NCBI GenBank assembly: GCA_033854175.1
Contig: JAWOKN010000056.1
Location: 3,736 to 67,735 of the forward strand
Origin: Bacteroidota bacterium
GTDB taxonomy: Bacteria; Bacteroidota; Ignavibacteria; UBA10030; SZUA-254
DNA: 64,000 bases
Direction of reading: 5' to 3'
The notes under the pieces: model-generated
The model's input: the letters and a program-made list of their open reading frames with translations, nothing else
What the model was told of the DNA's origin: nothing
Databases searched by the model: none
Part shown: positions 1-35,323 of the stretch, piece by piece
Position numbering within the stretch: the stretch's first letter is position 1
Layout: the number at the start of each line of letters is the position of its first letter
Program-made: the position numbers and the translations under genes

Positions 1-9
1 ACTAAGACC

Positions 10-255
10 ATGTTTCCTGCGGAATTGTTTGATTTGATCCCCTATAATGGCAACGCAACCCTGGTTCTGTGGAGATTTCACAGATCCATCGAAGGAGCGT
101 ACATGCACTCCATTACAGATTCAAAAATATATGGGGAGGATCCGGGCGCACGACTTGATCGAATCGACCTTCATAGTGAAGTTCCTGCAGTCAAGTCCTG
201 GAACCTTCAAGCAAAGAAAGCGGTGAGCCGTCAGTCCAAATTCGTGAGCGAGTAA
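10..255 (+). CDS. Hypothetical ORF. The frame is open to the window edge, so this may be the C-terminal part of an upstream gene.
   Basis: Six-frame ORF with no stop between position 1 and the ATG at 10. No recognisable motifs. Confidence 0.15.
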   Translation: MFPAELFDLIPYNGNATLVLWRFHRSIEGAYMHSITDSKIYGEDPGARLDRIDLHSEVPAVKSWNLQAKKAVSRQSKFVSE

Positions 256-434
256 ATGGTGTGAGAGAGGATCAAAGAAAAAGATTTCATGGACAAATAG
301 AAGCCTGGACAGGAATTTATAGCAGACATTGTAGAAGTTTTTCGCATACTGGATGTTATCCAAACATTGACAGATCATTGGCTTTTGAGAAACGGATCGA
401 TTATCTTGAATATGAAATCGGAAAGGTACCTGCT

Positions 435-1430
435 TTGACAAAGTATATTATCAGCATTCTTGTGGCTCTCTCCTCGATGAGCACTGACGAACGGGCCTAT
501 GCGAGCTGCGGAGCTGCGAGCTGCCCACTCAATTCATTCTCGCCGCTTCGTGGTGGCTGGCTGCAATTCGGTCTGGCGTATGAGTACATCAATCAGGATC
601 GCATATTTCTTGGATCGTCGGAATCGTACCCTGGAGCAATTCCGGAGGTTCATGACGAGCTCCGCACAATCAATCGGCGGACTCTTTTTCACGCACAGTA
701 CGGACTCTTCGATGGACTCGGCTTAGAAGTGCATGTCCCATTCATCAATCGTGAGCATAGCCACATTGCTCACGATGCAGAAGGCGACAAGGTGGAGTCA
801 TGGGCGTTTAGCGCAGTTGGCGATGTAATCATAAACGGGCAATATGCGCTACTCGTCCCACCAGAGGAGTTCGAGCCGTATCTCAGCGTGGTTGCCGGGA
901 TAAAGCTTCCGACCGGTGCGACTCATGAAGTGAATTCAGGTGGCGAAGAGGCAGAAGTTACAATTCAGCCCGGAACTGGGTCGACAGACGCATTCTTCGG
1001 ACTCAATTACCAACAAACTCTTGCGTCTCTTCCGATGCTCTCTGGTAAATACAGTGCACTGCCGATTATCGCGAATATAACCTTCCAGTTACCGGGACAT
1101 GGAACGCATGATTATCGATTCGGAAATTCTCTCCTTGCACATGTTGGAACCGCATACCGGTTCAGTAATTTTACCAGCATTCTCTTGCAGGTTAACGGAA
1201 AAGTTCAGGATTATGCTGATGTCGGGACGACCGGGGAACCGCGCGAGAACACCGGCGGAACATGGATTTTCCTTAGCCCGGGTCTCGGCCTCCACATATC
1301 CGATGCCTTTGTCGGCAACGCATACCTGCAAATTCCTTTATACCAGAACGTACACGGCATACAGCAAACAGCGGCATACAATTTGGCGTTCAACCTGACG
1401 TATTCGCTCAGTCTCGTTGGGGCCGATTGA
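435..1430 (+). CDS. Outer-membrane beta-barrel protein, transporter/'MetA-pathway of phenol degradation'-like family
   Basis: A hydrophobic signal-like N-terminus follows an in-frame TTG at 435 (…KYIISILVALSS…). The rest shows the alternating amphipathic pattern of beta strands with Gly/aromatic-rich turns and ends in an aromatic-containing C-terminus. Start is uncertain (ATG at 261 or 477 possible). Confidence 0.45.
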   Translation: MTKYIISILVALSSMSTDERAYASCGAASCPLNSFSPLRGGWLQFGLAYEYINQDRIFLGSSESYPGAIPEVHDELRTINRRTLFHAQYGLFDGLGLEVHVPFINREHSHIAHDAEGDKVESWAFSAVGDVIINGQYALLVPPEEFEPYLSVVAGIKLPTGATHEVNSGGEEAEVTIQPGTGSTDAFFGLNYQQTLASLPMLSGKYSALPIIANITFQLPGHGTHDYRFGNSLLAHVGTAYRFSNFTSILLQVNGKVQDYADVGTTGEPRENTGGTWIFLSPGLGLHISDAFVGNAYLQIPLYQNVHGIQQTAAYNLAFNLTYSLSLVGAD

Positions 1431-7810: not shown

Positions 7811-9085
7811 TCAGAGTAAAGAGAGTGCTTTCTGAAGATCATAAATGATATCCTCGGGATCCTCGAGGCCGATGGAAAGGCGCAGACCGCCCGGATCGAG
7901 TCCCCTTTCGAGCTGTTCGTCGAGCGGGAAAGCCGAATGCGTCATCGAGCTCGGATGTTCGACCAGAGTTCTGATCTGGCCGAGGCTGACTGCAAGGGTA
8001 ATCGTATAGGCATTATGGGCGAGGGCATTAATAAACCTTTCGCCCTGGTCGTGCCGTTCCTTCGGTGTAGAACCGTGGAGGACAAAATAGAGGAGTGTGC
8101 CGGGGGAGAAATTCCCCTTATAGTCGCGCATCTGTTTCCGGGCAAGTTTAAACTGCGGAAACGAGGGTAATCCGGGATACCGGACGAAGGCGACGCGGGG
8201 CTCCTTCCGCAGGAATTCAGCCACCCGGTAGGTGCTCTCGATCTGCTGGCGGATACGGGTTGAAAGACTCGGGAGGCCATAGACCAGTATAGGCCAGGCG
8301 CTCTTAGCTGACAGTGTGCCGCCGAAATCCTTCCGGTAAAGGAGGAGCCGGTCATAGGACCAGCGGGGACCGACAACGACGCCCCCCATATCGGTGCCGA
8401 AACCGCAGATCCCCTTTGTAAGAGAATCGACGACAAAATCGGCACCCAATGTCAGGGGACGCTGGCAGAAGGGGGTGGCGAAGGTATTATCGATGACCAG
8501 ATAGATCTTCCTTTCGGGGGATCTCCGGCGGTTCGCGCGGCGGATAATGCCGGCAATCGCGCCGATATCGATAAGATCCAGAGTCGGGTTCACGGGGGAC
8601 TCAAAATAGACGACGCGGGTGCGGTCGGTGATCTTCCGTTCAAGGTTTGCGGGTTTTCTCAGATCGACATAGGCCGTAGTGATCGTATACCGCGGGTACC
8701 AGTTAAGGAGAAGCGAATAGGTACAGCCGTACAAAACGGGGTGGGCGATAATTTCATCGGCGGTGCCGGTAAGTGTGCCGAGGACGGCCGAGATGGCTGC
8801 CATACCGGTCGCAAAAGTCACGGCCACCTCGCCCTGTTCGGCGTCGGCGAGGTTTTCCTCGAGGATCTCCTTATTCGGTTCGCCGAGGCGGTCATAGATA
8901 TAGATCGGGGCGCACGATGCAATCTTTCTGATTCCGTCGTGGTGGGCGAACTCTGCGAACCCCTGAGCGCCGCGCCGGGCGGTATCGAGGCGGAACGTCG
9001 AGGAGGAGGAAAGGGGCGGGACGACATGGTGGTTATAGTCCCACTTCTTGCTCGAGGCCTTTCCATAAATAAGGCGCGTCTGCAT
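7811..9085 (-). CDS. PLP-dependent Cys/Met-metabolism enzyme (methionine gamma-lyase / O-acetylhomoserine sulfhydrylase / cystathionine synthase-lyase family)
   Basis: Family fold with the PLP-lysine motif 'DSLTKGICGFGTDMGGVV' and a typical N-terminus 'MQTRLIYG…'. The ORF extends to 9139 and overlaps the upstream gene by 4 nt; the start at Met-19 (9085) is more typical. Confidence 0.75.
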   Translation of the reverse strand: MQTRLIYGKASSKKWDYNHHVVPPLSSSSTFRLDTARRGAQGFAEFAHHDGIRKIASCAPIYIYDRLGEPNKEILEENLADAEQGEVAVTFATGMAAISAVLGTLTGTADEIIAHPVLYGCTYSLLLNWYPRYTITTAYVDLRKPANLERKITDRTRVVYFESPVNPTLDLIDIGAIAGIIRRANRRRSPERKIYLVIDNTFATPFCQRPLTLGADFVVDSLTKGICGFGTDMGGVVVGPRWSYDRLLLYRKDFGGTLSAKSAWPILVYGLPSLSTRIRQQIESTYRVAEFLRKEPRVAFVRYPGLPSFPQFKLARKQMRDYKGNFSPGTLLYFVLHGSTPKERHDQGERFINALAHNAYTITLAVSLGQIRTLVEHPSSMTHSAFPLDEQLERGLDPGGLRLSIGLEDPEDIIYDLQKALSLL

Positions 9086-9135
9086 TGAATACGGGCGCGC
9101 CTGATGTTTTTTACCTTTCTTCGGGCGTAAGGATT

Positions 9136-10125
9136 TCATTTTTTCGTCTCATGTTGTTCCGGAACGGGATCTGACAGAAGCAGTTCCCTGACCGTAGGGC
9201 AGGAGAGAACCTCCGATCGGAGTTTGGCCAGAACCTCCGAGTTATACCAGATCTCCCTGAAATTATAATTATTCTCGCGGAGTTCGCCGCACGGGGTGCC
9301 GAGTGAGGCGCAGGGCTGGACCGAGCCTGTAGGCGAGATGAAGATAAAGCTCCTTCCGGCGAGGCACCAGTGGGTCCACTCGACGCGGACCTTATGATTC
9401 TCCTGTTCCCCGTTTCCCTCACCCGGTGCCGCAACATCATGGAGGCCGTATTTGATGCACTGGGGAGAAAAATACATCCCCTTCGGGCTCAGGCGTTTAA
9501 TCTGGGCGATCTTCGATATGAACTGGCCGATAAACTGGTCGGTATCGGCGTCCTGATCCTTCTCCGGAAGGAGGGCGGCGTCCCACGCCAGGTGGCAGTA
9601 GAGACCGTTTGCGGACTTCTGGAGTGCAAAGTCATGTTCAAAGGCCAGCTGGCGGGTATCGGGCTTATGGATACTGCTCCCGAGGTGGATTTCGTAGCCC
9701 GCCTTCTTGAGCCGCCGGATGCTGTTTTCCAGCGCCTGAAACTGCGTCGATTGCTTGAAACGGGTATCCATATCCTCGGTGATCGCGCCATCCAGGAGAA
9801 GGCGGAAAACCTTGGGGCCGAAGATGACATACTTCTCGATCATTTCGTCGGTCAGCTCCTGGGGTGCGACCTCGATAATCATCTTCAGGCCGAGGGCGAA
9901 CCCGTATTCGACAATCTGAAAAAGATCGGGGCGTTCGGCGACCTTTCTGCCGGTGAGGACGATAATCGGTTTTGCGATGCGGGCGATGCTGTCGATGATC
10001 AGGAGGCATTCATGGGTAGTAAGGACATCGGGCTCTCCGGGTGTTTTTTTCCTTGAAAGCTGCCAGACGATCATCCTGGGGAAAAAATCCTCTTCTTCGC
10101 GGTGGCTGTGTGCTGGACCCTGCAT
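9136..10125 (-). CDS. Radical-SAM/SPASM-fold protein lacking the CxxxCxxC cluster motif and GGE motif (pseudo-radical-SAM)
   Basis: Aligns along its length with PqqE/AhbD/NirJ-type radical SAM enzymes, but the cluster motif is replaced by 'QLSRKKTPGE', GGEP by GRKV, and TNG by EVA. The C-terminal SPASM-like Cys cluster is retained (CLAGRSFIFISPTGSVQPCASLGTPCGEL…C). No compensating frame contains the motifs. Confidence 0.6.
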   Translation of the reverse strand: MQGPAHSHREEEDFFPRMIVWQLSRKKTPGEPDVLTTHECLLIIDSIARIAKPIIVLTGRKVAERPDLFQIVEYGFALGLKMIIEVAPQELTDEMIEKYVIFGPKVFRLLLDGAITEDMDTRFKQSTQFQALENSIRRLKKAGYEIHLGSSIHKPDTRQLAFEHDFALQKSANGLYCHLAWDAALLPEKDQDADTDQFIGQFISKIAQIKRLSPKGMYFSPQCIKYGLHDVAAPGEGNGEQENHKVRVEWTHWCLAGRSFIFISPTGSVQPCASLGTPCGELRENNYNFREIWYNSEVLAKLRSEVLSCPTVRELLLSDPVPEQHETKK

Positions 10126-10146
10126 AAAAAATCTCCTAAGAACGAG

Positions 10147-10533
10147 TTATGATGAACGTGATCTGGAACGGCGTGAAGCATGATGAACCGCTTCGATAGT
10201 TTCGACGACAAGGGGAAAATAGCGTTCGAGGGCGCACTCCTCGTCCTCGCGCAGCTGGCAATGCCCCGAGGCGGACTGGAACGTGCATTCGGTGCAGACG
10301 ATCATATGCAGTTCGCGGAGATACCTCTCCATCGAATCCGCCTGCAGGTTTCCGACGATCTGGACGATGCGGGGAAGCTGGGTCTGGAGGGGGCAGTCGA
10401 ACTCGGCATCCAGCCGGCAGTTCCCGTGCCCGTCGCCGTCGAGGCAGACCCTGCAGACCTTCTCGCGGACGGCCTGCCAGTAGGCGTGTGCATCCTGGCG
10501 GGGGCGTTTTTCAGACCGCAATTTTCTTGCCAT
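10147..10533 (-). CDS. Cys-rich small protein B (8 conserved Cys; paralog of 10511..10852)
   Basis: Shared motif with its neighbour: W…CRvCLDGDGxGxCRL…CPL…LPxIVQ…VCxxCxFQ…C…ECALxRYFPLVVExIE. Its start overlaps the paralog's end by about 23 nt. Confidence 0.5.
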   Translation of the reverse strand: MARKLRSEKRPRQDAHAYWQAVREKVCRVCLDGDGHGNCRLDAEFDCPLQTQLPRIVQIVGNLQADSMERYLRELHMIVCTECTFQSASGHCQLREDEECALERYFPLVVETIEAVHHASRRSRSRSS

Positions 10534-10852
10534 TATTCTTCACCGTCTCGATAATTTCGACAACAAGGGGGAAGTAGCGGTCGAGGGCGCACTCCAGTTT
10601 ACTCCTCTTCCCGCAGAAAAGGTCGGGGGTCTGGAAATCGCAGTTTGCGCAGACAGTTTTCCTCAGGGCCGTGACATAGTCCCGGATATCGGGGGAATCG
10701 ACGGCAGTGACCGACTGGACAATCTCGGGTAAAAAGTGTTTCAGGGGACATTCCTCACCGGCGGGGAGGCGGCAAAGGCCCGTGCCGTCGCCGTCCACGC
10801 ACTTCCTGCAAATCCGGTTTTGGATCACCGGCCACAACTGATCGAGTTTCAT
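10511..10852 (-). CDS. Cys-rich small protein A (paralog of 10147..10533)
   Basis: 113 aa from the internal Met (MKLDQLWPVIQNRICRKCVDGDGTGLCRL…). Same 8-Cys architecture as protein B. The ORF is open to 10951. Confidence 0.5.
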   Translation of the reverse strand: MKLDQLWPVIQNRICRKCVDGDGTGLCRLPAGEECPLKHFLPEIVQSVTAVDSPDIRDYVTALRKTVCANCDFQTPDLFCGKRSKLECALDRYFPLVVEIIETVKNNGKKIAV

Positions 10853-10901
10853 ACGCACCACCTTTCGCAAAAACGTGATATAAGAACAATAACAGTGTGA
10901 A

Positions 10902-11171
10902 TTATGATTGTACATCGTCAAAACGGGCCCTGATCTGATCGAGGACCTCAAACTTGCCCCGCAGGGTTTCCTTAGTCTTCTCGAGCAGTTCGATCGACTT
11001 CTTCTTATTAATGATCAGCTCATTGAGGATAGCCTTGACATCGGGGTAGGTGCAAGCGTCGCGATAAAAGGCATACTGGAGGATCGCCTCCTTTTCCGTC
11101 GTACTTGCAAATTCCAGGGCATTGCACAACTCCCTGCATGATTGAACACAGTTCGGTTTTGTTTGCGGCAT
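10902..11171 (-). CDS. Small alpha-helical protein with N-terminal CxxSCxxLC, possibly ferritin/rubrerythrin-like
   Basis: An AGGAGG ribosome-binding site sits 6 nt upstream of the ATG at 11171 (MPQTKPNCVQSCRELCNALEFASTTEKEAILQYAFYRDA…). The gene is 11 nt downstream of the gamma-subunit stop. Confidence 0.4.
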   Translation of the reverse strand: MPQTKPNCVQSCRELCNALEFASTTEKEAILQYAFYRDACTYPDVKAILNELIINKKKSIELLEKTKETLRGKFEVLDQIRARFDDVQS

Positions 11172-11181
11172 AGTGATCCTC

Positions 11182-11739
11182 CTAGACAATAGGTGTAGCT
11201 GCTTCGATAACGAGTTTTTCACCGCAGGAGAGGGCGCGCCGGTTGACGTCGAGGAGATGGTGATACCGTTCCGGCAGGACGCTCTCGAGCGCCTTCATCA
11301 CGGAAGAAAGCTGGACGACCTGGCAGACATTCAAAAACGCGCCAAGCATGACCATATTCTTCACCTTGAGGTTCTTCAGCTTAATAGCCTCCTTCTCGAT
11401 ATCAACCGGAAGGACGGTGATATCGGTGCGGGTGGGGGGGATGATGACATTGGAGCTGTCATAAATCAGGATGCCGTTCGGTTTGATGGCCTTCTCGAAC
11501 TTGTCCACGGACGGCTGGTTCATCGCGACGACGGCATCATAGCGGGTAACGATCGGTGAACTGATCTCCTGGTTCGAAATGATGACGATACAATTGGCTG
11601 TGCCGCCCCGCATCTCGGGGCCATACGACGGCATCCATGAGACATGTTTTCCTTCAATCATCCCTGCATAGGTGAGGGTCATCCCCATCGAGAGAACCCC
11701 CTGCCCGCCAAAACCTGAGAACAAAATCTCGTGTGTCAT
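11182..11739 (-). CDS. 2-oxoacid:ferredoxin oxidoreductase, gamma subunit
   Basis: PorG/VorC/KorC-family sequence (FSGFGGQGVLSMG…GGTANCIVIIS…). Confidence 0.85.
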   Translation of the reverse strand: MTHEILFSGFGGQGVLSMGMTLTYAGMIEGKHVSWMPSYGPEMRGGTANCIVIISNQEISSPIVTRYDAVVAMNQPSVDKFEKAIKPNGILIYDSSNVIIPPTRTDITVLPVDIEKEAIKLKNLKVKNMVMLGAFLNVCQVVQLSSVMKALESVLPERYHHLLDVNRRALSCGEKLVIEAATPIV

Positions 11740-11790: not shown

Positions 11791-12576
11791 TTATTTATGT
11801 TCGACGACTTTTCCGTCAACCTTGAGATCCCCGAGAGGGAAAACCGGGAGCATATTCTGTTCAAGCCATTTATTCGCCTCGACGGGGGTCATCTTCCAGC
11901 CCGAGGGGCAATTCGAGACGACCTCGATGAGGCAATAGCCCTTCTTTTCCTTCTGTGCCTGGAGGGCCTTCGTGATGGATTTCTTCAGGTGCCGGATCGC
12001 ATTGGGTGTATGCACGGCCTGGCGGGTGACATAATAGGCGCCGGGGAGCATTGCGATAAGGTCTGTGACTTTTATCGGAAACCCGCAGTTGGCGACATCC
12101 CTCCCCTCGGGGGAGGTTGTGGTTTTCATGCCGAGGATAGTGGTGGGGGCCATCTGGCCTCCGGTCATGCCATAGATCGCGTTATTGATAAAAATCACGA
12201 GAATATTCTCGCCGCGGTTCGCTGCATGGATCGTCTCATTGGTGCCTATTGCCGCCAGGTCGCCGTCGCCCTGGTACGAGAAGACGATCTTATCGGGCCA
12301 CATCCGTTTAATGCCGGTGGCGACTGCGGAGGCGCGGCCGTGGGCCGCCTCCTGCATATCGACATCCAGGTAATGATAGGCGAAGACGGAGCACCCGACG
12401 GGAGCCACGCCGATCGTCTCGCTCTGGATGCCCATCTCCTGGACAACCTCCATCAGCACCTTATGGACGGCGCCGTGGCCGCAGCCCGGGCAATAGTGCA
12501 TCGGTGTATCGGTCAGAGTTGCCGGTTTCGACCAAACGATTTCCATACCTTCGATACTTGTCTGAACCTGGTTCAT
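11791..12576 (-). CDS. 2-oxoacid:ferredoxin oxidoreductase, beta (TPP-binding) subunit
   Basis: Carries 'CPGCGHG', a TPP motif 'GDGD…NNAIYGMTGGQ', and a start at MNQVQTS. Confidence 0.85.
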   Translation of the reverse strand: MNQVQTSIEGMEIVWSKPATLTDTPMHYCPGCGHGAVHKVLMEVVQEMGIQSETIGVAPVGCSVFAYHYLDVDMQEAAHGRASAVATGIKRMWPDKIVFSYQGDGDLAAIGTNETIHAANRGENILVIFINNAIYGMTGGQMAPTTILGMKTTTSPEGRDVANCGFPIKVTDLIAMLPGAYYVTRQAVHTPNAIRHLKKSITKALQAQKEKKGYCLIEVVSNCPSGWKMTPVEANKWLEQNMLPVFPLGDLKVDGKVVEHK

Positions 12577-12580
12577 CGCA

Positions 12581-13723
12581 TTATCTTTCAATGATTTCGG
12601 ATAATTCGGATTTCGCGCCCTCGCGCTGGTTTTCCCCCTTTGGAGCCGGTGACTGCGCGGCGGGTGTCTGGATGAGGTGAAGCATCTGCTCGAGGATCTC
12701 ATCCGGGGGAGGAATCATACCGCCCAGGCGTCCGTAAAAATTCACCGTAGTCTTACCTTCGACGGCCAGCCGGACATCCTCGACCATCTGTCCCGCATTG
12801 AGTTCAATAACCAGGATATTCCGCACCTTCGGAGCTAGTTCCCGGAGGATCTGGTAGGGATACGGAAACAGAGTAATCGGGCGGACGAGGCCGGCCTTGA
12901 TGCCGCGGTGGCGTGCCAGTTCGACGGCGCGGGCGCAGATCCTTGCGGCAAGTCCGTAGGCGACGAGGATCATATCGGCGTCGTCGCACGACGTAAGCTG
13001 ACAGCGGACCTCACTCTCGCGGACCTTCCGGTACTTCTCCTGGAGCTGTTTATTGATCCCCTCCATCTTTTCAGGCTGGATAAACAATGACGTGACGATA
13101 TTCCGTTCGCGGTCGGGGGTTTTGCCGGTGGTAGCCCACGGTTTATCGACCCTGTGCTTATTCGGGTCATACTCCCTGAAGGTGACAGCCTCCATCATCT
13201 GGCCGAGGGCACCGTCGGCGAGGATCATGACGGGATTGCGGTATTTGTCGGCGAGGTCGAAGCCGTCGAAGACAAAATCGGCCATCTCCTGGACGCTGTT
13301 GGGGGCAAGGACGATAAGGTGATAATCGCCGTGTCCGCCCCCCTTGGTCGCCTGGAAATAATCCCCCTGTGAGGGCTGGATCGTGCCGAGGCCCGGGCCG
13401 CCGCGGTTGACGTTGACCACGAGGCAGGGCAGCTGAGCCGATGCGATATAGGAAAGGCCCTCCTGCATGAGGCTGATACCGGGGCTTGAGGACGAGGTCA
13501 TTGCCCGTTTGCCTGCGCCTGCGGCGCCGTAGACCATATTGATGGCCGCAAGCTCGCTTTCCGACTGCATGACGACCATACCCCGTTTCCTCCCCTCCTC
13601 GGCCAGATACTCGATGACCTCAGACTGGGGGGTAATGGGATAACCGAAATACCCGTCGCAACCCGCCCGGATGGCGGCTTCCGCGAGGGCTTCGTTGCCC
13701 TTCATCAATTTCGCTTCGCTCAT
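12581..13723 (-). CDS. 2-oxoacid:ferredoxin oxidoreductase, alpha subunit
   Basis: PorA/VorB-family N-terminus (MKGNEALAEAAIRAGCDGYFGYPITPQSE…). Confidence 0.85.
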   Translation of the reverse strand: MSEAKLMKGNEALAEAAIRAGCDGYFGYPITPQSEVIEYLAEEGRKRGMVVMQSESELAAINMVYGAAGAGKRAMTSSSSPGISLMQEGLSYIASAQLPCLVVNVNRGGPGLGTIQPSQGDYFQATKGGGHGDYHLIVLAPNSVQEMADFVFDGFDLADKYRNPVMILADGALGQMMEAVTFREYDPNKHRVDKPWATTGKTPDRERNIVTSLFIQPEKMEGINKQLQEKYRKVRESEVRCQLTSCDDADMILVAYGLAARICARAVELARHRGIKAGLVRPITLFPYPYQILRELAPKVRNILVIELNAGQMVEDVRLAVEGKTTVNFYGRLGGMIPPPDEILEQMLHLIQTPAAQSPAPKGENQREGAKSELSEIIER

Positions 13724-14046
13724 ATATCTATTCCTCCTTGGGGTTGTTCATCGAGGACGACCCTGACATTGCTTTTCACGTTGGAGATAACGGCGACCGG
13801 TTCCTTCTTCGCGGCGCTCTTGCCGTCCTTGCGGGAGCGGTAGACGGTTATGACGGCATCGGGGCAGACAAGGGCGCAGTTGACGCAGCCGGTGCAGTTA
13901 TCCTGGACAAGCACGGCATAGTGATATCCTTTTGCGTTGATTTCCTTCGAAAGCGCCAGACTCTCCTGCGGGCACGAGTCGATACAGATCTCGCACCCCT
14001 TGCAGGTTTCCACCTGAATCTGGACAGTTCCATGGACTGTAGCCAT
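13720..14046 (-). CDS. 2-oxoacid:ferredoxin oxidoreductase, delta (2×[4Fe-4S] ferredoxin) subunit
   Basis: Two CxxCxxCxxxCP motifs (CKGCEICIDSCP; CTGCVNCALVCP). Confidence 0.8.
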   Translation of the reverse strand: MATVHGTVQIQVETCKGCEICIDSCPQESLALSKEINAKGYHYAVLVQDNCTGCVNCALVCPDAVITVYRSRKDGKSAAKKEPVAVISNVKSNVRVVLDEQPQGGIDI

Positions 14047-14057
14047 AGGTACTCCTT

Positions 14058-14372
14058 TTAAGTTGAAAACAAAACCTGATTACTCCCGGCCGACATCGCG
14101 ATCTGCAATTCCTCTTCGATCCACGTTTCGAACTCATACACGCTCGGTATCCTGCCGGCGGACTTGAGTTTCTCATTGACAAGTATCGTCGGAACCACGA
14201 GGGCCCCCATCGAGGCGATTTGCTGGATATCATTGATCCACTGGACGCGCGGTTTGGTTTCAAAGCGCGAGACCGAGGCGGTGGCATTCGTGACGGCATG
14301 ACGGACCTTAGCCGTCGGCAGGCCGATGATTTTGATTCGAACGGGATTAGGTCGCGGTTTCATTGCTGTCAA
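14058..14372 (-). CDS. Thioredoxin-fold protein of the 'redox-active disulfide protein 2' type, lacking the CxxC active site
   Basis: The family pattern is present (IKIIG…[28 protein letters not shown]…[13 protein letters not shown]), but the canonical G-x-G-C-x-x-C is 'GLPTAKV'. Translation from the DNA confirmed. The gene overlaps the maeB stop by 4 nt. Confidence 0.6.
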
Positions 14373-16669
14373 TTCACTTTCACTGGTTCTCTCAGCACCT
14401 GTTTGACTGTTTGGCCGGTCTGTGACTGCTGGGCTTCATGGACGGCCATGGCGGTAATATTGACGATATCGCTCACATCGTTCCCCGGCACCAGGAGGTA
14501 GACCGGTTTCCGGATCCCCATAAGGATCGGGCCGATGGCGGTTGCGCCGCCAAGGCGCCAGAGAAGCTTATAGGAAACGTTGGCCGATGTGAGGTCCGGG
14601 AAGATCAGCACATTTGCGCGGGTTTTGAGCGTATTGAACGGGTAAAGCTCGTTGAGGATCTCCGGAACTGTCGCCGTATCGGCCATCATCTCGCCGTCGA
14701 TCGTGAGGTCGGGCGCCTGTCGTTTCACGATTGCGACAGCTCGTGCGACCTTCTCCGAAAGCGGGTGGCGGGTGCTGCCGAAATTCGAGAACGAGAGCAT
14801 GGCCAGCCGCGGTTCGATATCAAACCGTTTCACCCGTTCCGCGGTCAGCATGGCAATCTCGGCCAGTTCCTCGGCTGATGGTTCGATATTCACCGTGGCG
14901 TCGGCGATAAAGACGGTCTGGTTCTTGAAGACCATCATATAGAGGCCGGCGATCCTGTTGACGCCGTCCTTCTTTCCGATGATCTGAAGTGCCGGTCTCA
15001 CGGTTTCGGGGTACTGCTGGGTAAGGCCGGAGATGAGGCCGTCGGCGTCCCCCTGGCGGACCATGAGCATGCCGAAGATATTATGAGTTTTCAGATGGCG
15101 TTCCGCGTCGAACTTCGTCACGCCGTGGCGCTGCCGGATGTTATAGAACGTGGTAATATACTCATCGAGCTTCGCCGATTTCGAGGGATTGATAATCTCG
15201 ATCCCCTCGAGGTCGAGGCCCAGGTCGGCGATCCGCTGCTGGATCAGGGTGCGGCTCCCCAGGAGTATTGGACGTGCGATCTTTTCGTCGACGATGATAT
15301 GGGCGGCGCGGAGAATCTTCTCCTCCTCGCCCTCCGGGAAGACGATGCGTTTGGGTTCGCTCTGCGCCTTATGGATAAAGAAGCGCATAATCTCGCGCGA
15401 CTTGCCCAACCGAGCCTCGAGCGAATCGCGGTAGGCCTCGATATCCTTGATCGGATTGCGGGCGACGCCGGAATCCATGGCGGCCTTGGCGACGGCGACG
15501 GCTTCCCACAAAAGAACGCGCGGATCGAACGGTTTCGGGATGATATATTCCCGGCCGAACTCAATCCTCTTGGCGCCATAGGCCTTGATGACGGAGTCGG
15601 GGACATCCTCCTTGGTCAGGCGTGCGAGTGCATTGGAAGCTGCGACCTTCATCTCGTCGTTGATCGCCATTGCGCGCACATCGAGGGCGCCGCGGAAGAT
15701 AAAGGGGAATCCGAGGACATTATTCACCTGGTTCGGGTAATCGGACCGGCCGGTGGCCATAATGACATCATCGCGGGCTGCGACGGCGTCGTTATAGGTA
15801 ATCTCGGGATCGGGGTTGGCCATAGCGAAGACGATCGGTTTGTCGGCCATCGAGCGGAGCATCTCCTTCGAGACAATATCCTTGGCGGAGACGCCGCAGA
15901 AAACATCGGCCCCCTTCATGGCATCGGCGAGAGTCCGTTTATCGGTTACGGCGGCAAAATACTCCTTATAGGGGTTCATCCCCTCGGTTCTCCCCTTATA
16001 GACGACGCCCTTGGTATCGACGAGGGTAATATTCTCCCGTTTCACGCCGAGGCGTTCATAGAACTTCGCGCAGGCGATCCCGGCCGCGCCGGCGCCGCTG
16101 AAGACCACCCGGACCTCGCCGATCTTCTTCTTCACCAGTTCAAGGGCGTTCATCAGGGCGGCGCCGCTGATGATGGCGGTACCGTGCTGGTCGTCGTGGA
16201 AGACGGGGATATTCATCGTCTTCTTGAGCGTCTCCTCGATATAGAAGCACTCGGGGGCCTTGATATCCTCCAGGTTGATCCCGCCGAATGTGGGTTCAAG
16301 CATCTGGACGGTCTTGATGATGGCGTCGGGGTCGTGGGAATTCAGTTCGATATCGAACACGTCGACATCGGCGAAGCGTTTGAAGAGGACCCCTTTCCCC
16401 TCCATGACCGGTTTACCGGCCAGAGCGCCGATATCGCCGAGACCCAAGACGGCGGTGCCGTTACTGACGACGGCGACGAGGTTGCCTTTGGCGGTATAGC
16501 GGTAGACATCCTCGGGGTTGGCTTCAATTTCCTTGCACGGGTCGGCGACGCCTGGCGTATAGGCCAGGGAAAGGTCGCGCTGAGTGGCGCACGGCTTCGT
16601 GGAGATGACTTCAATCTTGCCATGACGGCCTTGCGAATGATAATCGAGGGCTTCCTGTTTGCGTACCAT
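14369..16669 (-). CDS. maeB: NADP-dependent malic enzyme (malic enzyme fused to a phosphotransacetylase-like domain)
   Basis: N-terminal malic enzyme motifs (YTPGVA…[10 protein letters not shown]…) with a C-terminal PTA-like domain, 766 aa. Confidence 0.9.
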
Positions 16670-16727: not shown

Positions 16728-17156
16728 TTATCTACCGGGCACATCGCCGCCCTCATGCCTCAGGCGCCAGCAACCGACATCCGACGGTGGCGAGAGAAAC
16801 GGCCCGGTCAAATCAAGATGTTTGACGCTTCCCCAGGAGGGAAGAATGTCGTGAGTTAAGAACTTTTTCGTATAATCGGCCAGATCGAGATCATCCTCGA
16901 CATCCTCATCCACGCAGACATAGACATCGACGATGCCGTGTGTTCCCTGAATGGAGCGCGGGCAGAGGGCATAGGCAATAAACCCCGTATCGCGCCATTC
17001 GTAGGCCTTCAGGATATGGTCGTAGGTATTCGGGAGTTCCAGCAGCATATCGATCTCTTTATGCAGCTCCAGTTCGAGGACAAATTTTTCACAATACTTG
17101 CACCGCTGTTCCGCAGTTTGCATATCCTCCTCCTCTATGATTGGACGCTTGACCAT
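16728..17156 (-). CDS. Hypothetical protein
   Basis: ORF in an operon position between the CoA-transferase and maeB. It has CKYCEK near the N-terminus and no recognisable family. Confidence 0.3.
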   Translation of the reverse strand: MVKRPIIEEEDMQTAEQRCKYCEKFVLELELHKEIDMLLELPNTYDHILKAYEWRDTGFIAYALCPRSIQGTHGIVDVYVCVDEDVEDDLDLADYTKKFLTHDILPSWGSVKHLDLTGPFLSPPSDVGCWRLRHEGGDVPGR

Positions 17157-29090: not shown

Positions 29091-29306
29091 ATGGATCATC
29101 GAATGAACGGGGAAATCGTGGAAATCTACATCAGGGACGGGTCGACGCTTGCGAAAGTGCGCGTGGACGGCACCTATTTTCACGTTCCGCTTCTTCTCCT
29201 GATGAACGCCCATGTGGGCGACCACATCATCATCGACGCCGGAATCGCATTAACAAGGATCGAACGGAAGGCAAAGAGCCGGCAGGCTGCAGAACCGGCG
29301 CTGTAG
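29091..29306 (+). CDS. HypC/HupF-like small beta-barrel protein lacking the conserved N-terminal Cys2
   Basis: 72 aa. 'GEIVEIYIRDGSTLAKVRVDGTYFHVPLLLLMNAHVGDHIIIDAGIAL' follows the HypC pattern (…VDFGGV.R.V.L.L…VGDYVLVHVGFAI), but the N-terminus is MDHRMNGE, not MC…. An AAGGAA ribosome-binding site precedes the ATG. Confidence 0.4.
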   Translation: MDHRMNGEIVEIYIRDGSTLAKVRVDGTYFHVPLLLLMNAHVGDHIIIDAGIALTRIERKAKSRQAAEPAL

Positions 29307-29526: not shown

Positions 29527-32202
29527 ATGATGATCGGCACGCTCATATCCCATTACAAAATACTTGAAAAACTCGGCGAGGGAGGAATGGGTGTGGTATA
29601 CAAGGCGCACGACACAAAGCTCGAGCGCGTGGTTGCGCTGAAATTCCCCCCTCAGGCGCTCACGGCCGACCCGGAGGAGAGGGAGCGGTTTTACCAGGAG
29701 GCCCGATCGGCATCGCAGCTTCTCCACCCGAACGTCTGCACGATCTTTGAGATCAACGAATCGGAGAAGCAAATCTATATTGCCATGGAGTATGTCGACG
29801 GCCCGACCCTCAAGAAACGGATTCAGGCAGACAATCCGATGCCCCTGGGAAAATCCCTTGACATCGCCATCCAGATCTGCAACGGGCTTGTTGCCGCCCA
29901 TGAAAAGGGGATCGTGCACCGGGACATCAAATCCGAGAACATACTGCTGACGGCCAGGGGGGAGGTAAAAATCACCGATTTCGGACTCGCCAAGCTCAAA
30001 GGTGCGGAGAAGCTCACGAAAACAGGAAGTACATTGGGCACTGCCGCCTACATGTCCCCCGAGCAGGCGCGTGGTGAGGATGTCGATGCGAGAAGCGACA
30101 TATTCTCCTGCGGGGTGGTACTGTATGAACTCTTCGCCGGCAGGCTTCCTTTCCGCGGAGAACACCAGGCTGCGATACTCTACTCACTGGTGAACGAAGA
30201 GCCCGCGCCCCTGGCGAGGTTCAATGAGCACGTGTCGCCGGACCTGCAGCATATTGTTTCAAAGGCGCTCGCCAAAGACAGGGAGGACCGTTATCAGCAT
30301 GCCGACGAAATGCTTGCCGACTTGAGGCGGGAACGCAAACGCATGGAGTACGCGCGAACCGGTGTAATCATACAGCCAAAAGTGGTTTCCTCCACGCAAG
30401 AAGTCCAAGCGCAGGAAGCCTCAGACCGTTCGGGAGGCACCAAGCGAGTGATATGGGGCGTCGCCGGTGCTGTCATTCTTCTTGTCGCAGCCGGTATTTA
30501 TCTCACGGTCTGGAAACCCGGACCCAATCAGAGCGCGACAAATTCCGCAATCAGCAAGATTGCGGTACTCCCATTCGAGAACATCGGACCATCCGACAAG
30601 GAATATTTTGCGGACGGTCTCACCGACGAGATACGGACAAAGCTCAGTGGGCTTTCGAATCTGGCCGTCATTGCCCGTGCAAGTTCGATGCAGTACAAAA
30701 AGACCACGAAATCCATCTCGGAAATCGGCACCGAACTCAGTGTCGGTTACCTGTTGCAGGGGACCATACGATGGGAGGAAGGAGGATCGTCCCAGAGTGC
30801 TGTTCACCTTTTGGTAAATCCTTCCCTGGTGAAAATCACCGACGGGACGCAGGTCTGGTCGCAGTCATTCGAAGGGACCCTGTCGAGCGTCTTTCAGATG
30901 CAATCCGACATCGCGCAGCAGGTCGCACGCGCGCTCGAGGTGGCATTGAATCCCAGCGACCAGCAAGTCATCACCTCGAGGCCGACCAACAACGCCGAAG
31001 CGTACGATTACTTTTTACAGGGGCAGCAAAAATTGTATTTGCCGACCTCGGCGGACATGAAAGAGGCGCTTCCGATGTTTGAGAAAGCGATCAAACTTGA
31101 TCCAAAATTTGTCGCCGCCTATGCGGATTTATCCCGTGCGTACGCTTTCGCGACATTTCAGGGAATGAGCCCTGACAGCCTCCTTGTGTTATCGAAGAAA
31201 TCGCTTGACAAGGTCAAAGAACTGGAACCAAATTCGTTTCTGGCAAACTGGTCGGAAGGCTACTACTATTATTACGGGTTCAGAGATTACGACCAGGCAT
31301 TACGGCACTTCACCACGGCACTGAATCTCCAGCCCAACAATGTGGACATCATATCCGCGATCGGGTATGTCAAGCGGAGGCAGGGAAAATTCCAGGAAAG
31401 CCGCGATCTCCTCGCCAGGAGCTGTGATCTTGACCCGCAGGCGTGGCGCAACTGGTTCGAGCTCGGCTATGTAGAGCTCGTCATGCGTCAATATCCTCTG
31501 GCGGACGAACACATGAAGCGGGCGCTCCTGGTTTTCGGCAAGGGAAATGTCGCGGTAGCGGCATATCATTCGCAGGCCATCTTCTCCATGAACGGCGACG
31601 TCAGGGGGGCGCAGGAACTCTTCGACCGGGAGGCCGGCGAAAACAGATCGTGGTTATACAAGATGAGGAGTGCTCAACTCCATCTTGCGGGCGGGAATGT
31701 CGGCGCCGCCATAAATGATCTTTCCCGTGCGGTGCTCTCGGAGCCGGACGTGGATTCCACGGTCTACTACATGTTCTCAGGGCTCCTGCATGAACAATCC
31801 GGGCCCCGTAGTGCAGGGCGTGCTTATTTCGATAGTGCAAGAATTCTCGCAGAAAGAACAGTACACAACGCCCCCAATCAGGCCGTGGCTCACATGAATC
31901 TGGGAATCATCCTGGCTCATCTCGGACAAAAAGCCCGTGCAATTGAGGAGGGGGAAAAGGGGGTACGACTGATGCCGCTGGAAAAGGACGCGCTTGATGA
32001 AGGGCCGAACGCACTCTATGAGTTAGCTCAGATTTACGCTCTCACGGGAGAATCTGACGCTGCAATCGACAAGCTTGAACAGATATTGAGCATTCCAAAC
32101 ATGTACTCGGTCTATTTTGTGCAATCCGATCAGGAGCTTGCATCACTTGCGACGCTGCCCCGGTTTCAGAAATTGCTGGAAAAGTACAAAACTGCGCGGT
32201 AA
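29527..32202 (+). CDS. Serine/threonine protein kinase with one transmembrane helix and an extracytoplasmic TPR-repeat domain
   Basis: Hanks kinase motifs (GEGGMGVVYKA, HRDIKSENILL, DFGLAK), a transmembrane helix (VIWGVAGAVILLVAAGIYLTVW), then TPR-like repeats. Confidence 0.8.
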   Translation: MMIGTLISHYKILEKLGEGGMGVVYKAHDTKLERVVALKFPPQALTADPEERERFYQEARSASQLLHPNVCTIFEINESEKQIYIAMEYVDGPTLKKRIQADNPMPLGKSLDIAIQICNGLVAAHEKGIVHRDIKSENILLTARGEVKITDFGLAKLKGAEKLTKTGSTLGTAAYMSPEQARGEDVDARSDIFSCGVVLYELFAGRLPFRGEHQAAILYSLVNEEPAPLARFNEHVSPDLQHIVSKALAKDREDRYQHADEMLADLRRERKRMEYARTGVIIQPKVVSSTQEVQAQEASDRSGGTKRVIWGVAGAVILLVAAGIYLTVWKPGPNQSATNSAISKIAVLPFENIGPSDKEYFADGLTDEIRTKLSGLSNLAVIARASSMQYKKTTKSISEIGTELSVGYLLQGTIRWEEGGSSQSAVHLLVNPSLVKITDGTQVWSQSFEGTLSSVFQMQSDIAQQVARALEVALNPSDQQVITSRPTNNAEAYDYFLQGQQKLYLPTSADMKEALPMFEKAIKLDPKFVAAYADLSRAYAFATFQGMSPDSLLVLSKKSLDKVKELEPNSFLANWSEGYYYYYGFRDYDQALRHFTTALNLQPNNVDIISAIGYVKRRQGKFQESRDLLARSCDLDPQAWRNWFELGYVELVMRQYPLADEHMKRALLVFGKGNVAVAAYHSQAIFSMNGDVRGAQELFDREAGENRSWLYKMRSAQLHLAGGNVGAAINDLSRAVLSEPDVDSTVYYMFSGLLHEQSGPRSAGRAYFDSARILAERTVHNAPNQAVAHMNLGIILAHLGQKARAIEEGEKGVRLMPLEKDALDEGPNALYELAQIYALTGESDAAIDKLEQILSIPNMYSVYFVQSDQELASLATLPRFQKLLEKYKTAR

Positions 32203-33305: not shown

Positions 33306-34124
33306 ATGGCGAGTGCGAAGGCGATGTTAATCGACCTCACGATGTGCATCGGGTGCAATTCGTGTCAGGATGCCTGCAAGAAGGCAAACGGTTTACCCGA
33401 AGGGGAGGAACAGCAGTTATCGGCAACCGCCTATACGGCGCTCAATGAATACAACGGCGTCTATGTCCGGAGGATGTGTCAGCACTGCATCCAGCCGACC
33501 TGTGCATCGGTCTGTCCCGTTGGTGCGTTGAAAAAGACGCCCGAGGGGCCTGTCCTCTACGACGAATCGAAGTGTATCGGCTGCCGGTACTGCATGCAGG
33601 CATGTCCGTTCCAGGTGCCTAGGTACGAGTGGAGCAGCACCTATCCGAGAATCCAGAAATGCCGCTTCTGTGCGGAGAGGCTTGCGAAGGGGATGCCCAC
33701 GGCATGTTCGGAGGCATGTCCGACGGGTGCGACAAAATTCGGCGACCGGGACGAACTGGTGCGCGAGGCCTACCAGCGGATATCCGCGGAACCGGGGAAA
33801 TACATCGACAAGGTCTACGGCCTCCAGGAAGTCGGAGGGACGTCAATACTGTACCTCTCCTCGGTTCCGTTCGAGCAGCTGGGATTCAAGACCCAGCTGG
33901 AGTCCAACGCGCTGCCGCTCCTCACGTGGAACGTGCTGTCGAAGATTCCGAACGTGGTCAGTGTCGGCGGAGTGGCGCTCTTCGGCATCTGGTGGATCAC
34001 CAACCGCCGGATGGAACTCGAGAAAGAGCGAAAAAACGGCCGGGCAAACGGTACGGCGCCGGGGGATGACCATCATTCCCGGAAAGAACAAACCCAACAA
34101 ACCGAGAATGGAGAGAGAGTATGA
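33306..34124 (+). CDS. 4×[4Fe-4S] ferredoxin-type subunit of the NrfC/HybA/PsrB/DsrO family with a C-terminal transmembrane helix
   Basis: Four Cys clusters (CIGCNSCQDAC; CQHCIQPTCASVCP; CIGCRYCMQACP; CRFC…CSEACP). No Tat (RR) signal. C-terminal helix VVSVGGVALFGIWWI. Confidence 0.8.
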   Translation: MASAKAMLIDLTMCIGCNSCQDACKKANGLPEGEEQQLSATAYTALNEYNGVYVRRMCQHCIQPTCASVCPVGALKKTPEGPVLYDESKCIGCRYCMQACPFQVPRYEWSSTYPRIQKCRFCAERLAKGMPTACSEACPTGATKFGDRDELVREAYQRISAEPGKYIDKVYGLQEVGGTSILYLSSVPFEQLGFKTQLESNALPLLTWNVLSKIPNVVSVGGVALFGIWWITNRRMELEKERKNGRANGTAPGDDHHSRKEQTQQTENGERV

Positions 34125-35323
34125 AACGCAGACTTCAGCAACTGACACTCTGGAAGGTCGTCGCCGGGCTGATCATCCTCAGCGGCCTCATATCAACCTA
34201 CGTCCGTTTCGCAAAAGGGCTGGGGGCGGCGACGCACCTGAGCGATCAATTCCCGTGGGGATTATGGATCGGGTTTGACATCCTGTGCGGCGTGGGGCTT
34301 GCGGCCGGGGGGTTCACGCTGGCTGCGATCGTCTACATCTTCAACATCAGGCGGTTTGAAGCGATCATCCGGCCGACCATCTTGACGGCATTCCTCGGCT
34401 ATCTCCTTGTGATTGCCGCGCTGATGTTCGATCTCGGGCGGCCGCTGCAGATATGGCATGCGATCATCATGTGGAACCATCACTCGGTCATGTTCGAGGT
34501 CGCGTGGTGCGTCATGCTCTACACGACAGTTCTCGCCCTTGAATTTTCGCCGATGCTCTTTGAAAAATTCAGGATGAACAACACGCTGAAGACATTCCAC
34601 AAAATCAGCATACCGCTCATTATCCTCGGGGTGATCCTCTCGACGCTGCACCAGTCGTCGCTCGGCTCGCTCTACCTCATCGTGCCCGAGAAGCTCTACG
34701 GCCTCTGGTATTCCGCCTATCTGCCGGTATTCTTCTACGTCTCGGCGATCGCGGTCGGCTGTGCGATGGTCATCTTCGAATCCATCCTGAGTTCCCGGGC
34801 GTTCCGGAAGAGCCTGGAAACGAACCTCCTTGCGGAGCTGGCCCGCATCAGCGTCGTGGCGCTCGCCGTTTACGCCACGATGAAGATCGTCGACTTGAAG
34901 GACCGCGACGTCATCAGCCTCCTCTTCCTCCCCCGCGCCGAGACCTATTTTTACTGGGCTGAGATCACCGTCGGGGTCATCGCACCGATCATACTTTTCT
35001 CCATCAGAAAAGCCCGTGAGAGTCAGACGGGGTTATTCGCCGGGGCCACGATGATCATCACCGGGTTCATCATGAACCGTCTCAACATCAGTCTGACGGG
35101 GATGGAAGGCTGGGCCGGTCTTTCCTACTTCCCGTCATGGATGGAAATTTCCGTCACCCTCACCATCGTCACGGTGGGGTTCATTGCATTCCGGCTTGCG
35201 GCCAAATATCTGCCGGTGTTCAAGCCCGAACTGAACGTTCCCGAAAAGGAATTCGCACACCCGATCGTCGAGGATCTCCACAGCGTCTCATCGTCGCGGG
35301 AACGCTCGATGATACTGGAATAA
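34121..35323 (+). CDS. NrfD/HybB/PsrC/DsrP-family polytopic membrane subunit (quinone-interacting)
   Basis: About 10 predicted transmembrane helices with NrfD-family N-terminal helix signatures. The start overlaps the Fe-S subunit stop by 4 nt. Confidence 0.8.
   Translation: MKRRLQQLTLWKVVAGLIILSGLISTYVRFAKGLGAATHLSDQFPWGLWIGFDILCGVGLAAGGFTLAAIVYIFNIRRFEAIIRPTILTAFLGYLLVIAALMFDLGRPLQIWHAIIMWNHHSVMFEVAWCVMLYTTVLALEFSPMLFEKFRMNNTLKTFHKISIPLIILGVILSTLHQSSLGSLYLIVPEKLYGLWYSAYLPVFFYVSAIAVGCAMVIFESILSSRAFRKSLETNLLAELARISVVALAVYATMKIVDLKDRDVISLLFLPRAETYFYWAEITVGVIAPIILFSIRKARESQTGLFAGATMIITGFIMNRLNISLTGMEGWAGLSYFPSWMEISVTLTIVTVGFIAFRLAAKYLPVFKPELNVPEKEFAHPIVEDLHSVSSSRERSMILE

Follow-up and report, generated by a model that had tools for sequence, protein, structure and literature searches.

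How should a protein be understood when it keeps the fold of a disulfide-carrying family but lacks the disulfide? This question is raised by a small gene in the 64,000-nucleotide stretch of Bacteroidota DNA analysed here, which we call the window. A first-pass annotation had described the gene product as a homolog of 'redox-active disulfide protein 2' with the segment GLPTAKV at the active-site position, had placed the gene between porD and maeB, and had suggested that the protein might be a structural or binding pseudo-enzyme. It had also noted two other homologs of Cys-dependent proteins in the window whose key Cys residues are replaced. We refer to the protein as Trx3*, and examine in turn its sequence and fold, its relatives, its gene context, and its possible roles.

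A Cys-free protein of the thioredoxin fold

The gene and its former active site are located as follows.

14058..14363, minus strand: Trx3*, a Cys-free thioredoxin-fold protein of 101 aa counted from the ATG, characterized by PF13192, AlphaFold2, orthologs, and dN/dS
14304..14324, minus strand: the GLPTAKV segment (G14-L-P-T17-A-K-V20) at the N-terminal end of helix 1, read directly from the DNA

The longest reading of the open reading frame spans 14058..14372 on the minus strand, and uses a TTG start at 14372 that adds MTA before the ATG at 14363. Because all database orthologs begin at MK or MR (length 98-101 aa), as does the NCBI protein P0001, which is identical to the window protein and begins MKPR, the ATG at 14363 is the likely start. 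With this start, a 5-nt gap lies between the stop codon of maeB and Trx3*, and the same 5-nt gap is present in the related loci L004, L015, and L016. The position of the gene between porD and maeB is therefore as originally described, but the 4-nt overlap that had been reported with it exists only with the TTG start.

On the minus strand, from position 14339 downward, the DNA reads CGA ATC AAA ATC ATC GGC CTG CCG ACG GCT AAG GTC CGT. The two Cys positions of a CxxC motif are thus filled by T17 (ACG, 14313..14315) and V20 (GTC, 14304..14306). When a profile of close orthologs is aligned to the solved structure of MTH895 (1ILO), C-A-N-C lies opposite T-A-K-V, so that both the DNA reading and this alignment bear out GLPTAKV as the segment at the active-site position. 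The whole window protein contains zero Cys residues. To become a Cys codon, ACG and GTC would each need two or more base changes, and reading of the DNA reveals no in-frame TGA in the gene; the Cys-less reading is therefore explained neither by a base-calling error nor by selenocysteine.

Membership of Trx3* in Pfam PF13192 (Thioredoxin_3) is established by a score of 35.9 bits against a curated gathering cut-off of 24.8, with residues 12-86 matching profile positions 2-76 of 76. Besides this family, a Pfam scan of the protein returned only a weak match to ArsD. Against NCBIfam TIGR00412 ('MTH895/ArsE family thioredoxin-like protein'), the score of 40.6 bits falls below the cut-off of 62. One feature of TIGR00412, the CxxC at the N-terminus of helix 1, is absent, its place being taken by T17 and V20. 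Another feature, the minimal thioredoxin/glutaredoxin-like fold with a cis-Pro loop, is present, as judged by an AlphaFold2 model, the match of this model to 1ILO, and Pro58. The model has a mean pLDDT of 88.6 and the order beta-alpha-beta-alpha-beta-beta-alpha, with helix 1 formed by residues 18-31. In a Foldseek search with the model, 1ILO and thioredoxins are the best structural matches, and the target-normalised TM for 1ILO is 0.71. The two checks proposed in the first-pass annotation, namely alignment to family members and structure prediction, accordingly agree on a PF13192 protein of thioredoxin topology in which TxxV replaces the CxxC of MTH895.

Trx3* thus belongs to PF13192 by sequence and fold, but functionally it is not a 'redox-active disulfide protein 2', since it is missing the defining feature. 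A protein without any cysteine cannot perform thiol-disulfide chemistry, and disulfide reductase activity is, going by the sequence, chemically excluded.

A clade that has lost the active-site disulfide

A word-indexed search found 19 homologs with 60-100% identity to Trx3*, and all 19 carry I-I-G-L-P-T-x-[KR]-V. To extend this set, we searched 1.84 billion cluster representatives exhaustively with HMMER and then ran a profile search. One high-ranking match was rejected on inspection: P0021, a protein of 4551 aa that came third in the exhaustive search with ten weak stretches, is repetitive and adhesin-like, and is a false positive arising from repeat bias rather than a thioredoxin-domain protein.

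The clade consists of 87 cluster representatives with the site aligned. None of them has Cys at the second Cys position, which is occupied by T (43 members), V (34), I (4), A (3), S (2), or M (1). At the first Cys position, G (38 members), T (21), C (17), S (10), and R (1) occur, and 59 of the 87 members have no Cys anywhere. Among 30 more distant matches, 27 have a canonical CxxC. We propose that the subclade be recognized by the motif G-[LFW]-P-[GTCS]-x-[KR]-[TV] in place of G-x-G-C-x-x-C. The window protein fits this description by its motif, GLPTAKV, and by its place between a malic-enzyme gene and porD. Position 19 is K or R in every listed clade member, Pro58 is invariant, and Arg71 is nearly so. 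We also considered the GR[IV]PS loop and the cis-Pro as a clade-specific binding site, but dropped this candidate; these motifs are common to canonical CxxC members, and therefore do not by themselves amount to a new binding site.

In a neighbor-joining tree calculated from approximately 80 columns, which is without support values and serves only as a rough guide, the clade is a single group nested among CxxC relatives. In this rough tree, forms with CxxT/V are spread over several deeper branches of the clade, and the TxxV group that includes the window protein is a derived branch. Because the CxxT/V forms are scattered on deeper branches of a nested clade, the tree suggests that the second Cys was lost once, at the origin of the clade, and that losses of the first Cys followed repeatedly. 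A Cys-less pair with SxxD at the site, P0043 and P0123, falls outside the clade in the tree, and the locus of P0043, the readable one of the two, is not of the malic-enzyme/por type.

One pair of clade members bears on the remaining thiol. P0120 and the protein encoded in L026 (L026 6001..6261) differ solely by Cys to Arg at the surviving first-Cys position, a comparison of sequences suggesting that the thiol is dispensable even where it is retained. This difference has the appearance of a natural polymorphism where the active site used to be.

Comparison of Trx3* with close orthologs gives dN/dS values of 0.05-0.11, which indicate purifying selection; we restricted this calculation to close pairs, given that distant pairs are unreliable from dS saturation. 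The first-pass annotation had named two findings that would count against it, orthologs carrying the CxxC and a base-calling error at the two Cys codons. Neither was encountered: no clade member has the CxxC, the codons are too far from Cys codons, and the motif recurs in dozens of assemblies. The annotation had further asked whether the Cys-less form is conserved in orthologous operons, and it is, in a conserved context and under purifying selection. The Cys-less state is therefore not an error or a local mutation, but a property of a distinct and so far unnamed subclade.

All clade members with a named source are 'Bacteroidota bacterium' MAGs, that is, uncultured and metagenome-assembled. 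A scan of contigs with a narrower alignment, which is not a census of the clade, yielded two Bacteroidota MAGs and one canonical WOR-3 member. Our literature search found no paper on a Cys-less PF13192 clade, and none linking a thioredoxin-like gene to malic enzyme or to the oxidoreductase. The clade is thus previously undescribed, although redox-dead thioredoxin folds themselves are well known. Members of the clade are annotated as 'thioredoxin family protein', 'DsbA family dithiol-disulfide isomerase', or 'small redox-active disulfide protein 2', and such names mislead when applied to proteins that have no disulfide.

The conserved gene cluster and other Cys-replaced homologs

Trx3* is encoded within a larger group of genes on the same strand.

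16728..17156, minus strand: 142-aa protein that matches no Pfam family, encoded between maeB and the acetyl-CoA hydrolase/transferase gene
14369..16669, minus strand: maeB, hybrid malic enzyme of 766 aa whose C-terminal domain is phosphotransacetylase-like (Pfam malic, Malic_M, and PTA_PTB), directly upstream of Trx3*
13720..14046, minus strand: porD, delta subunit of a four-subunit 2-oxoacid:ferredoxin oxidoreductase, with two [4Fe-4S] (Fer4_7 and related Pfam families)
12581..13723, minus strand: porA, alpha subunit (Pfam POR_N and PFOR_II), syntenic in all loci
11791..12576, minus strand: porB, thiamine-pyrophosphate-binding beta subunit (Pfam TPP_enzyme_C and ortholog lengths), its start set at an internal ATG to fit orthologs of 262-263 aa
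11182..11739, minus strand: porG, gamma subunit (Pfam POR, 131.6 bits)
10902..11168, minus strand: conserved 88-aa protein after porG, with only weak matches, to Rubrerythrin (E = 0.025) and DUF5741
10147..10533 and 10511..10852, minus strand: two small tandem paralogs (44% identity, E = 3e-33) that match no Pfam family
9136..10125, minus strand: radical-SAM/SPASM-like protein without CxxxCxxC, in the same conserved cluster as Trx3*
7811..9139, minus strand: gene for a Cys/Met-metabolism PLP enzyme, with a 4-nt overlap with the radical-SAM/SPASM-like gene

An Rfam scan of the window gave no match.

The wider cluster, which holds further pyruvate-related genes, keeps largely the same order among related loci: pyruvate phosphate dikinase, alanine dehydrogenase, acetyl-CoA hydrolase/transferase, a 141-aa protein, maeB, Trx3*, porDABG, an 86-89-aa protein, Cys-rich small proteins, the radical-SAM/SPASM-like protein, the Cys/Met-metabolism PLP enzyme, and FeoAB. 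The 141/142-aa protein upstream of maeB is kept in many of these loci at 36-73% identity. Every locus that reaches far enough has, after porG, a gene for a protein of 85-89 aa (50-88% identity), which may be a further accessory component of the por operon.

We collected the contexts of Trx3* by exact-protein look-ups, a genome scan, and a metagenome scan, scored them by tblastn with the window proteins, and measured the intergenic gaps; the counts that follow refer to 24 distinct protein sequences. In 22 of the 22 distinct loci that have upstream DNA, the gene directly upstream encodes a malic enzyme; the gap ranges from -4 to 53 nt, and its median is 15.5. Directly downstream, porD is found in 16 of 17 distinct loci, at a distance of 11-155 nt (median 35). 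In the window, the start of porD is 11 nt past the Trx3* stop codon, with AAGGAG in the spacer. This flanking arrangement is maintained down to approximately 35% identity to the window protein.

Two exceptions vary one flank each. In L028, and probably in L027 and L033, 3.1 kb is inserted between Trx3* and porD, and Trx3* is 33 nt from maeB. In L014, Trx3* is 44 nt from porD, and the malic enzyme upstream of it is a short protein of another type, with 485 aa, 39% identity, and no PTA domain. Given these exceptions, gene order ties Trx3* to the pair of enzymes without singling out one of them as its partner. The insert itself (L028 6470..9378, also in L027 and L033) encodes a 626-aa fusion resembling aminodeoxychorismate synthase/lyase and a 237-aa protein that has a hydrophobic N-terminus and looks secreted.

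Among the genes of the operon, Trx3* evolves fastest: by tblastn, its identities are 35-83%, versus 72-90% for maeB. In the divergent locus L012, identity is 35% for Trx3*, 74% for maeB, 73% for porA, 75% for porB, 60% for porD, and 65% for porG. The L012 operon is flanked (1..860 and 9809..11734) by genes for a single-chain PFOR of 1222 aa, rubrerythrin, an Rrf2 regulator, hemerythrin, and a cytochrome-c-like protein, and these neighbors hint at an oxygen-stress setting.

Further downstream, the tandem small proteins lie between the gene for the 88-aa protein and the radical-SAM/SPASM-like gene. Each has eight Cys residues in the arrangement CxxC...C...C / CxxC...C...C, and the pair is kept in L001 and L004, where the two genes encode 114 aa and 120-121 aa. 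Possible roles for the pair are as partners or as substrates of the SPASM protein.

The radical-SAM/SPASM-like protein is one of the two other Cys-replaced homologs. It scores 18.2 bits for Radical_SAM, below the cut-off of 29.5, and 23.6 bits for SPASM, above the cut-off of 21.5. Its best NCBIfam match is AhbD (heme b synthase), at 101 bits versus a cut-off of 500, and it also weakly matches the NCBIfam 'pseudo-SAM/SPASM' family TIGR04347. An alignment of six orthologs contains no CxxxCxxC, in agreement with the earlier description of a radical-SAM-fold protein lacking its cluster Cys. Seven Cys residues are nevertheless invariant across the six (C40, C177, C223, C254, C272, C279, and C309), most of them in the SPASM half. 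From this pattern of residues, the SAM cluster has probably been lost, and auxiliary clusters may still be bound. The gene and that of the PLP enzyme form a pair that is conserved across the cluster, and feoA and feoB follow.

The other homolog is encoded elsewhere in the window.

29091..29306, plus strand: HypC-like protein of 71 aa with Asp for Cys2 (Pfam HupF_HypC, 31.7 bits; cut-off 28.5), downstream of cydAB

All nine homologs of this protein begin MD, with Asp at position 2, so that its description as a HypC-like protein lacking Cys2 holds throughout. The order cydA-cydB-HypC-like is found both in the window and in a relative, L036 (HypC-like gene at L036 5001..5216), and no hydrogenase genes are present in the stretches read (window 26.5-32.5 kb and the L036 stretch). 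In L036, the HypC-like gene precedes a module of GCV_H-domain, 4Fe-4S, and NrfD-like genes. After the HypC-like gene, the window carries an inserted Ser/Thr kinase gene (891 aa, 29527..32202), and ORFs of 272 and 400 aa at 33306..35323 have lengths matching those in the L036 module.

The first-pass annotation had grouped Trx3* with these two proteins as a recurring Cys-less pattern. All three replacements hold up and are conserved within their respective lineages; two of them, those of Trx3* and the radical-SAM-like protein, belong to one conserved cluster. As a single phenomenon, the pattern fares less well, because the radical-SAM-like protein keeps its seven invariant Cys and the HypC-like gene is 15 kb from Trx3*, next to cydAB in a separate conserved context. 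Since we found no evidence of a shared cause, the pattern stands as an observation only.

Candidate roles and relation to known systems

On the basis of the observed fold, absence of Cys, purifying selection, clade structure, and synteny, we lean modestly toward the view that Trx3* has no redox function and serves the malate/pyruvate/acetyl-CoA enzyme module as an accessory or binding protein of thioredoxin fold. Trx3* comes from a subclade of the MTH895/PF13192 lineage that lost the redox-active disulfide; under this proposal, the thioredoxin scaffold would now be used as a binding module, making Trx3* a noncatalytic accessory protein or adaptor. Its presumed binding partner would be one enzyme of the operon, either the malic enzyme or the oxidoreductase; the protein binding, the partner, and the effect are all parts that we infer. 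Because Trx3* evolves fastest in its operon, an accessory protein fits better than a catalytic core subunit. The earlier suggestion of a structural or binding pseudo-enzyme is thus upheld as regards the pseudo-enzyme, by the complete loss of the second Cys, purifying selection, and conserved context, whereas binding is a conjecture.

A different role, which we consider unlikely, is that of a fifth, structural subunit of the four-subunit pyruvate:ferredoxin oxidoreductase, for example, one that caps or stabilizes the oxygen-sensitive enzyme. In favor of this role, Trx3* stays close to porD in 16 of the 17 loci, including L014, where it still adjoins porD even though the malic enzyme has been swapped for another type. 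The rubrerythrin, hemerythrin, and Rrf2 genes near the L012 operon also accord with protection of an oxygen-sensitive enzyme. However, Trx3* stays with maeB in L028, where unrelated genes precede porD, and it evolves much faster than porA, porB, porD, and porG. Moreover, the extra (delta) subunit of five-subunit 2-oxoacid:ferredoxin oxidoreductases of Aquificae, which has been suggested to cap or stabilize the oxygen-sensitive enzyme, is a protein of 21-28 kDa that resembles the CODH/ACS epsilon subunit and does not have a thioredoxin fold (PMC10052474; bioRxiv 10.64898/2026.09.02.748891).

We regard as quite unlikely the idea that Trx3* keeps a Cys-independent chemical or ligand role, such as binding of CoA, acetyl-CoA, or a metabolite, or a holdase-type chaperone function in Fe-S enzyme maturation. 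In its favor are the Lys or Arg at position 19, the nearly invariant Arg71, and the presence of FeoAB and a SPASM-domain protein in the same cluster. On the other hand, no ligand-binding family was matched: the ArsD score of 16.1 bits is below 27, and the metal-binding Cys residues are missing. Arg71 and the GR[IV]PS loop, furthermore, are present in canonical redox members too.

A more ambitious form of the preferred accessory-protein reading is that Trx3* physically couples the hybrid malic enzyme to the oxidoreductase in a malate-to-acetyl-CoA channelling complex, or shields the oxidoreductase in microaerophilic Bacteroidota. We consider this a long shot; if true, it would define a new class of accessory subunits for 2-oxoacid:ferredoxin oxidoreductases.

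It is very improbable that Trx3* is a passenger gene, functionally unconnected to its neighbors and held in place by operon inertia. As the least conserved gene of the cluster it might suggest as much, and the separate Cys-less pair P0043/P0123 exists outside this context; yet its position is kept at approximately 35% identity and despite rearranged flanking genes, and selection on it is strongly purifying. Finally, although PF13192 includes selenoprotein members according to the literature, an artefact (sequencing error, strain-specific mutation, decaying pseudogene, or misread selenoprotein) is refuted by the codons, the lack of an in-frame TGA, the same motif in dozens of independent assemblies, and the low dN/dS.

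Should Trx3*, as an accessory protein, bind the malic enzyme or the oxidoreductase, an accessory component would be added at the well-studied pyruvate node. The clade would then also represent a natural stepwise conversion of a redox scaffold into a binding module, from CxxC through CxxT/V to no Cys. The immediate impact is limited, because the clade has so far been seen only in uncultured Bacteroidota.

Several known systems invite comparison. The five-subunit enzymes of Aquificae are similar in that a small extra gene product is encoded with por or for subunit genes (PMC10052474). Trx3* does not belong to their extra-subunit class, as its Pfam matches are confined to Thioredoxin_3 and the weak one to ArsD, and the converse idea, that PorE/ForE of the five-subunit Hydrogenobacter/Aquifex enzymes are thioredoxin-like, was ruled out by the resemblance to CODH/ACS epsilon given in the literature.

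The closest comparison is with MTH895 itself, the 'small redox-active disulfide protein 2' of 1ILO. At 25% identity, the two proteins share the same minimal fold of about 80 aa, and both the cis-Pro loop and the GR[IV]PS loop are retained in Trx3*. They differ in the change of CxxC to TxxV, the absence of Cys, and the TIGR00412 score below the cut-off, as well as in an acidic C-terminal helix extension that is found in Trx3*. Their contexts differ also: Trx3* is encoded with malic enzyme and porDABG, whereas the single canonical CxxC member examined (L008, a CPRC protein in a WOR-3 genome) is encoded between an ArsR-like gene and a permease-like gene.

The ArsD metallochaperone (PF06953) resembles Trx3* in having a thioredoxin-like fold without a canonical CxxC, and the two match weakly (E = 0.015). 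Trx3* is not an ArsD, with 16.1 bits for PF06953 versus a cut-off of 27 and 13.3 bits for NF033727 versus 90, and no ars genes are nearby. ArsD binds As(III) through Cys12, Cys13, and Cys18, which can have no counterpart in a Cys-free protein.

Redox-inactive thioredoxin folds serve as binding modules in Dim1/U5-15kD, KaiB, the N-domain of SasA, the b/b' domains of PDI, and thioredoxin z, the PAP10 subunit of the plastid RNA polymerase. These modules have no specific sequence relationship to Trx3* and are analogous in principle only; unlike them, the lineage of Trx3* derives from the MTH895 branch.
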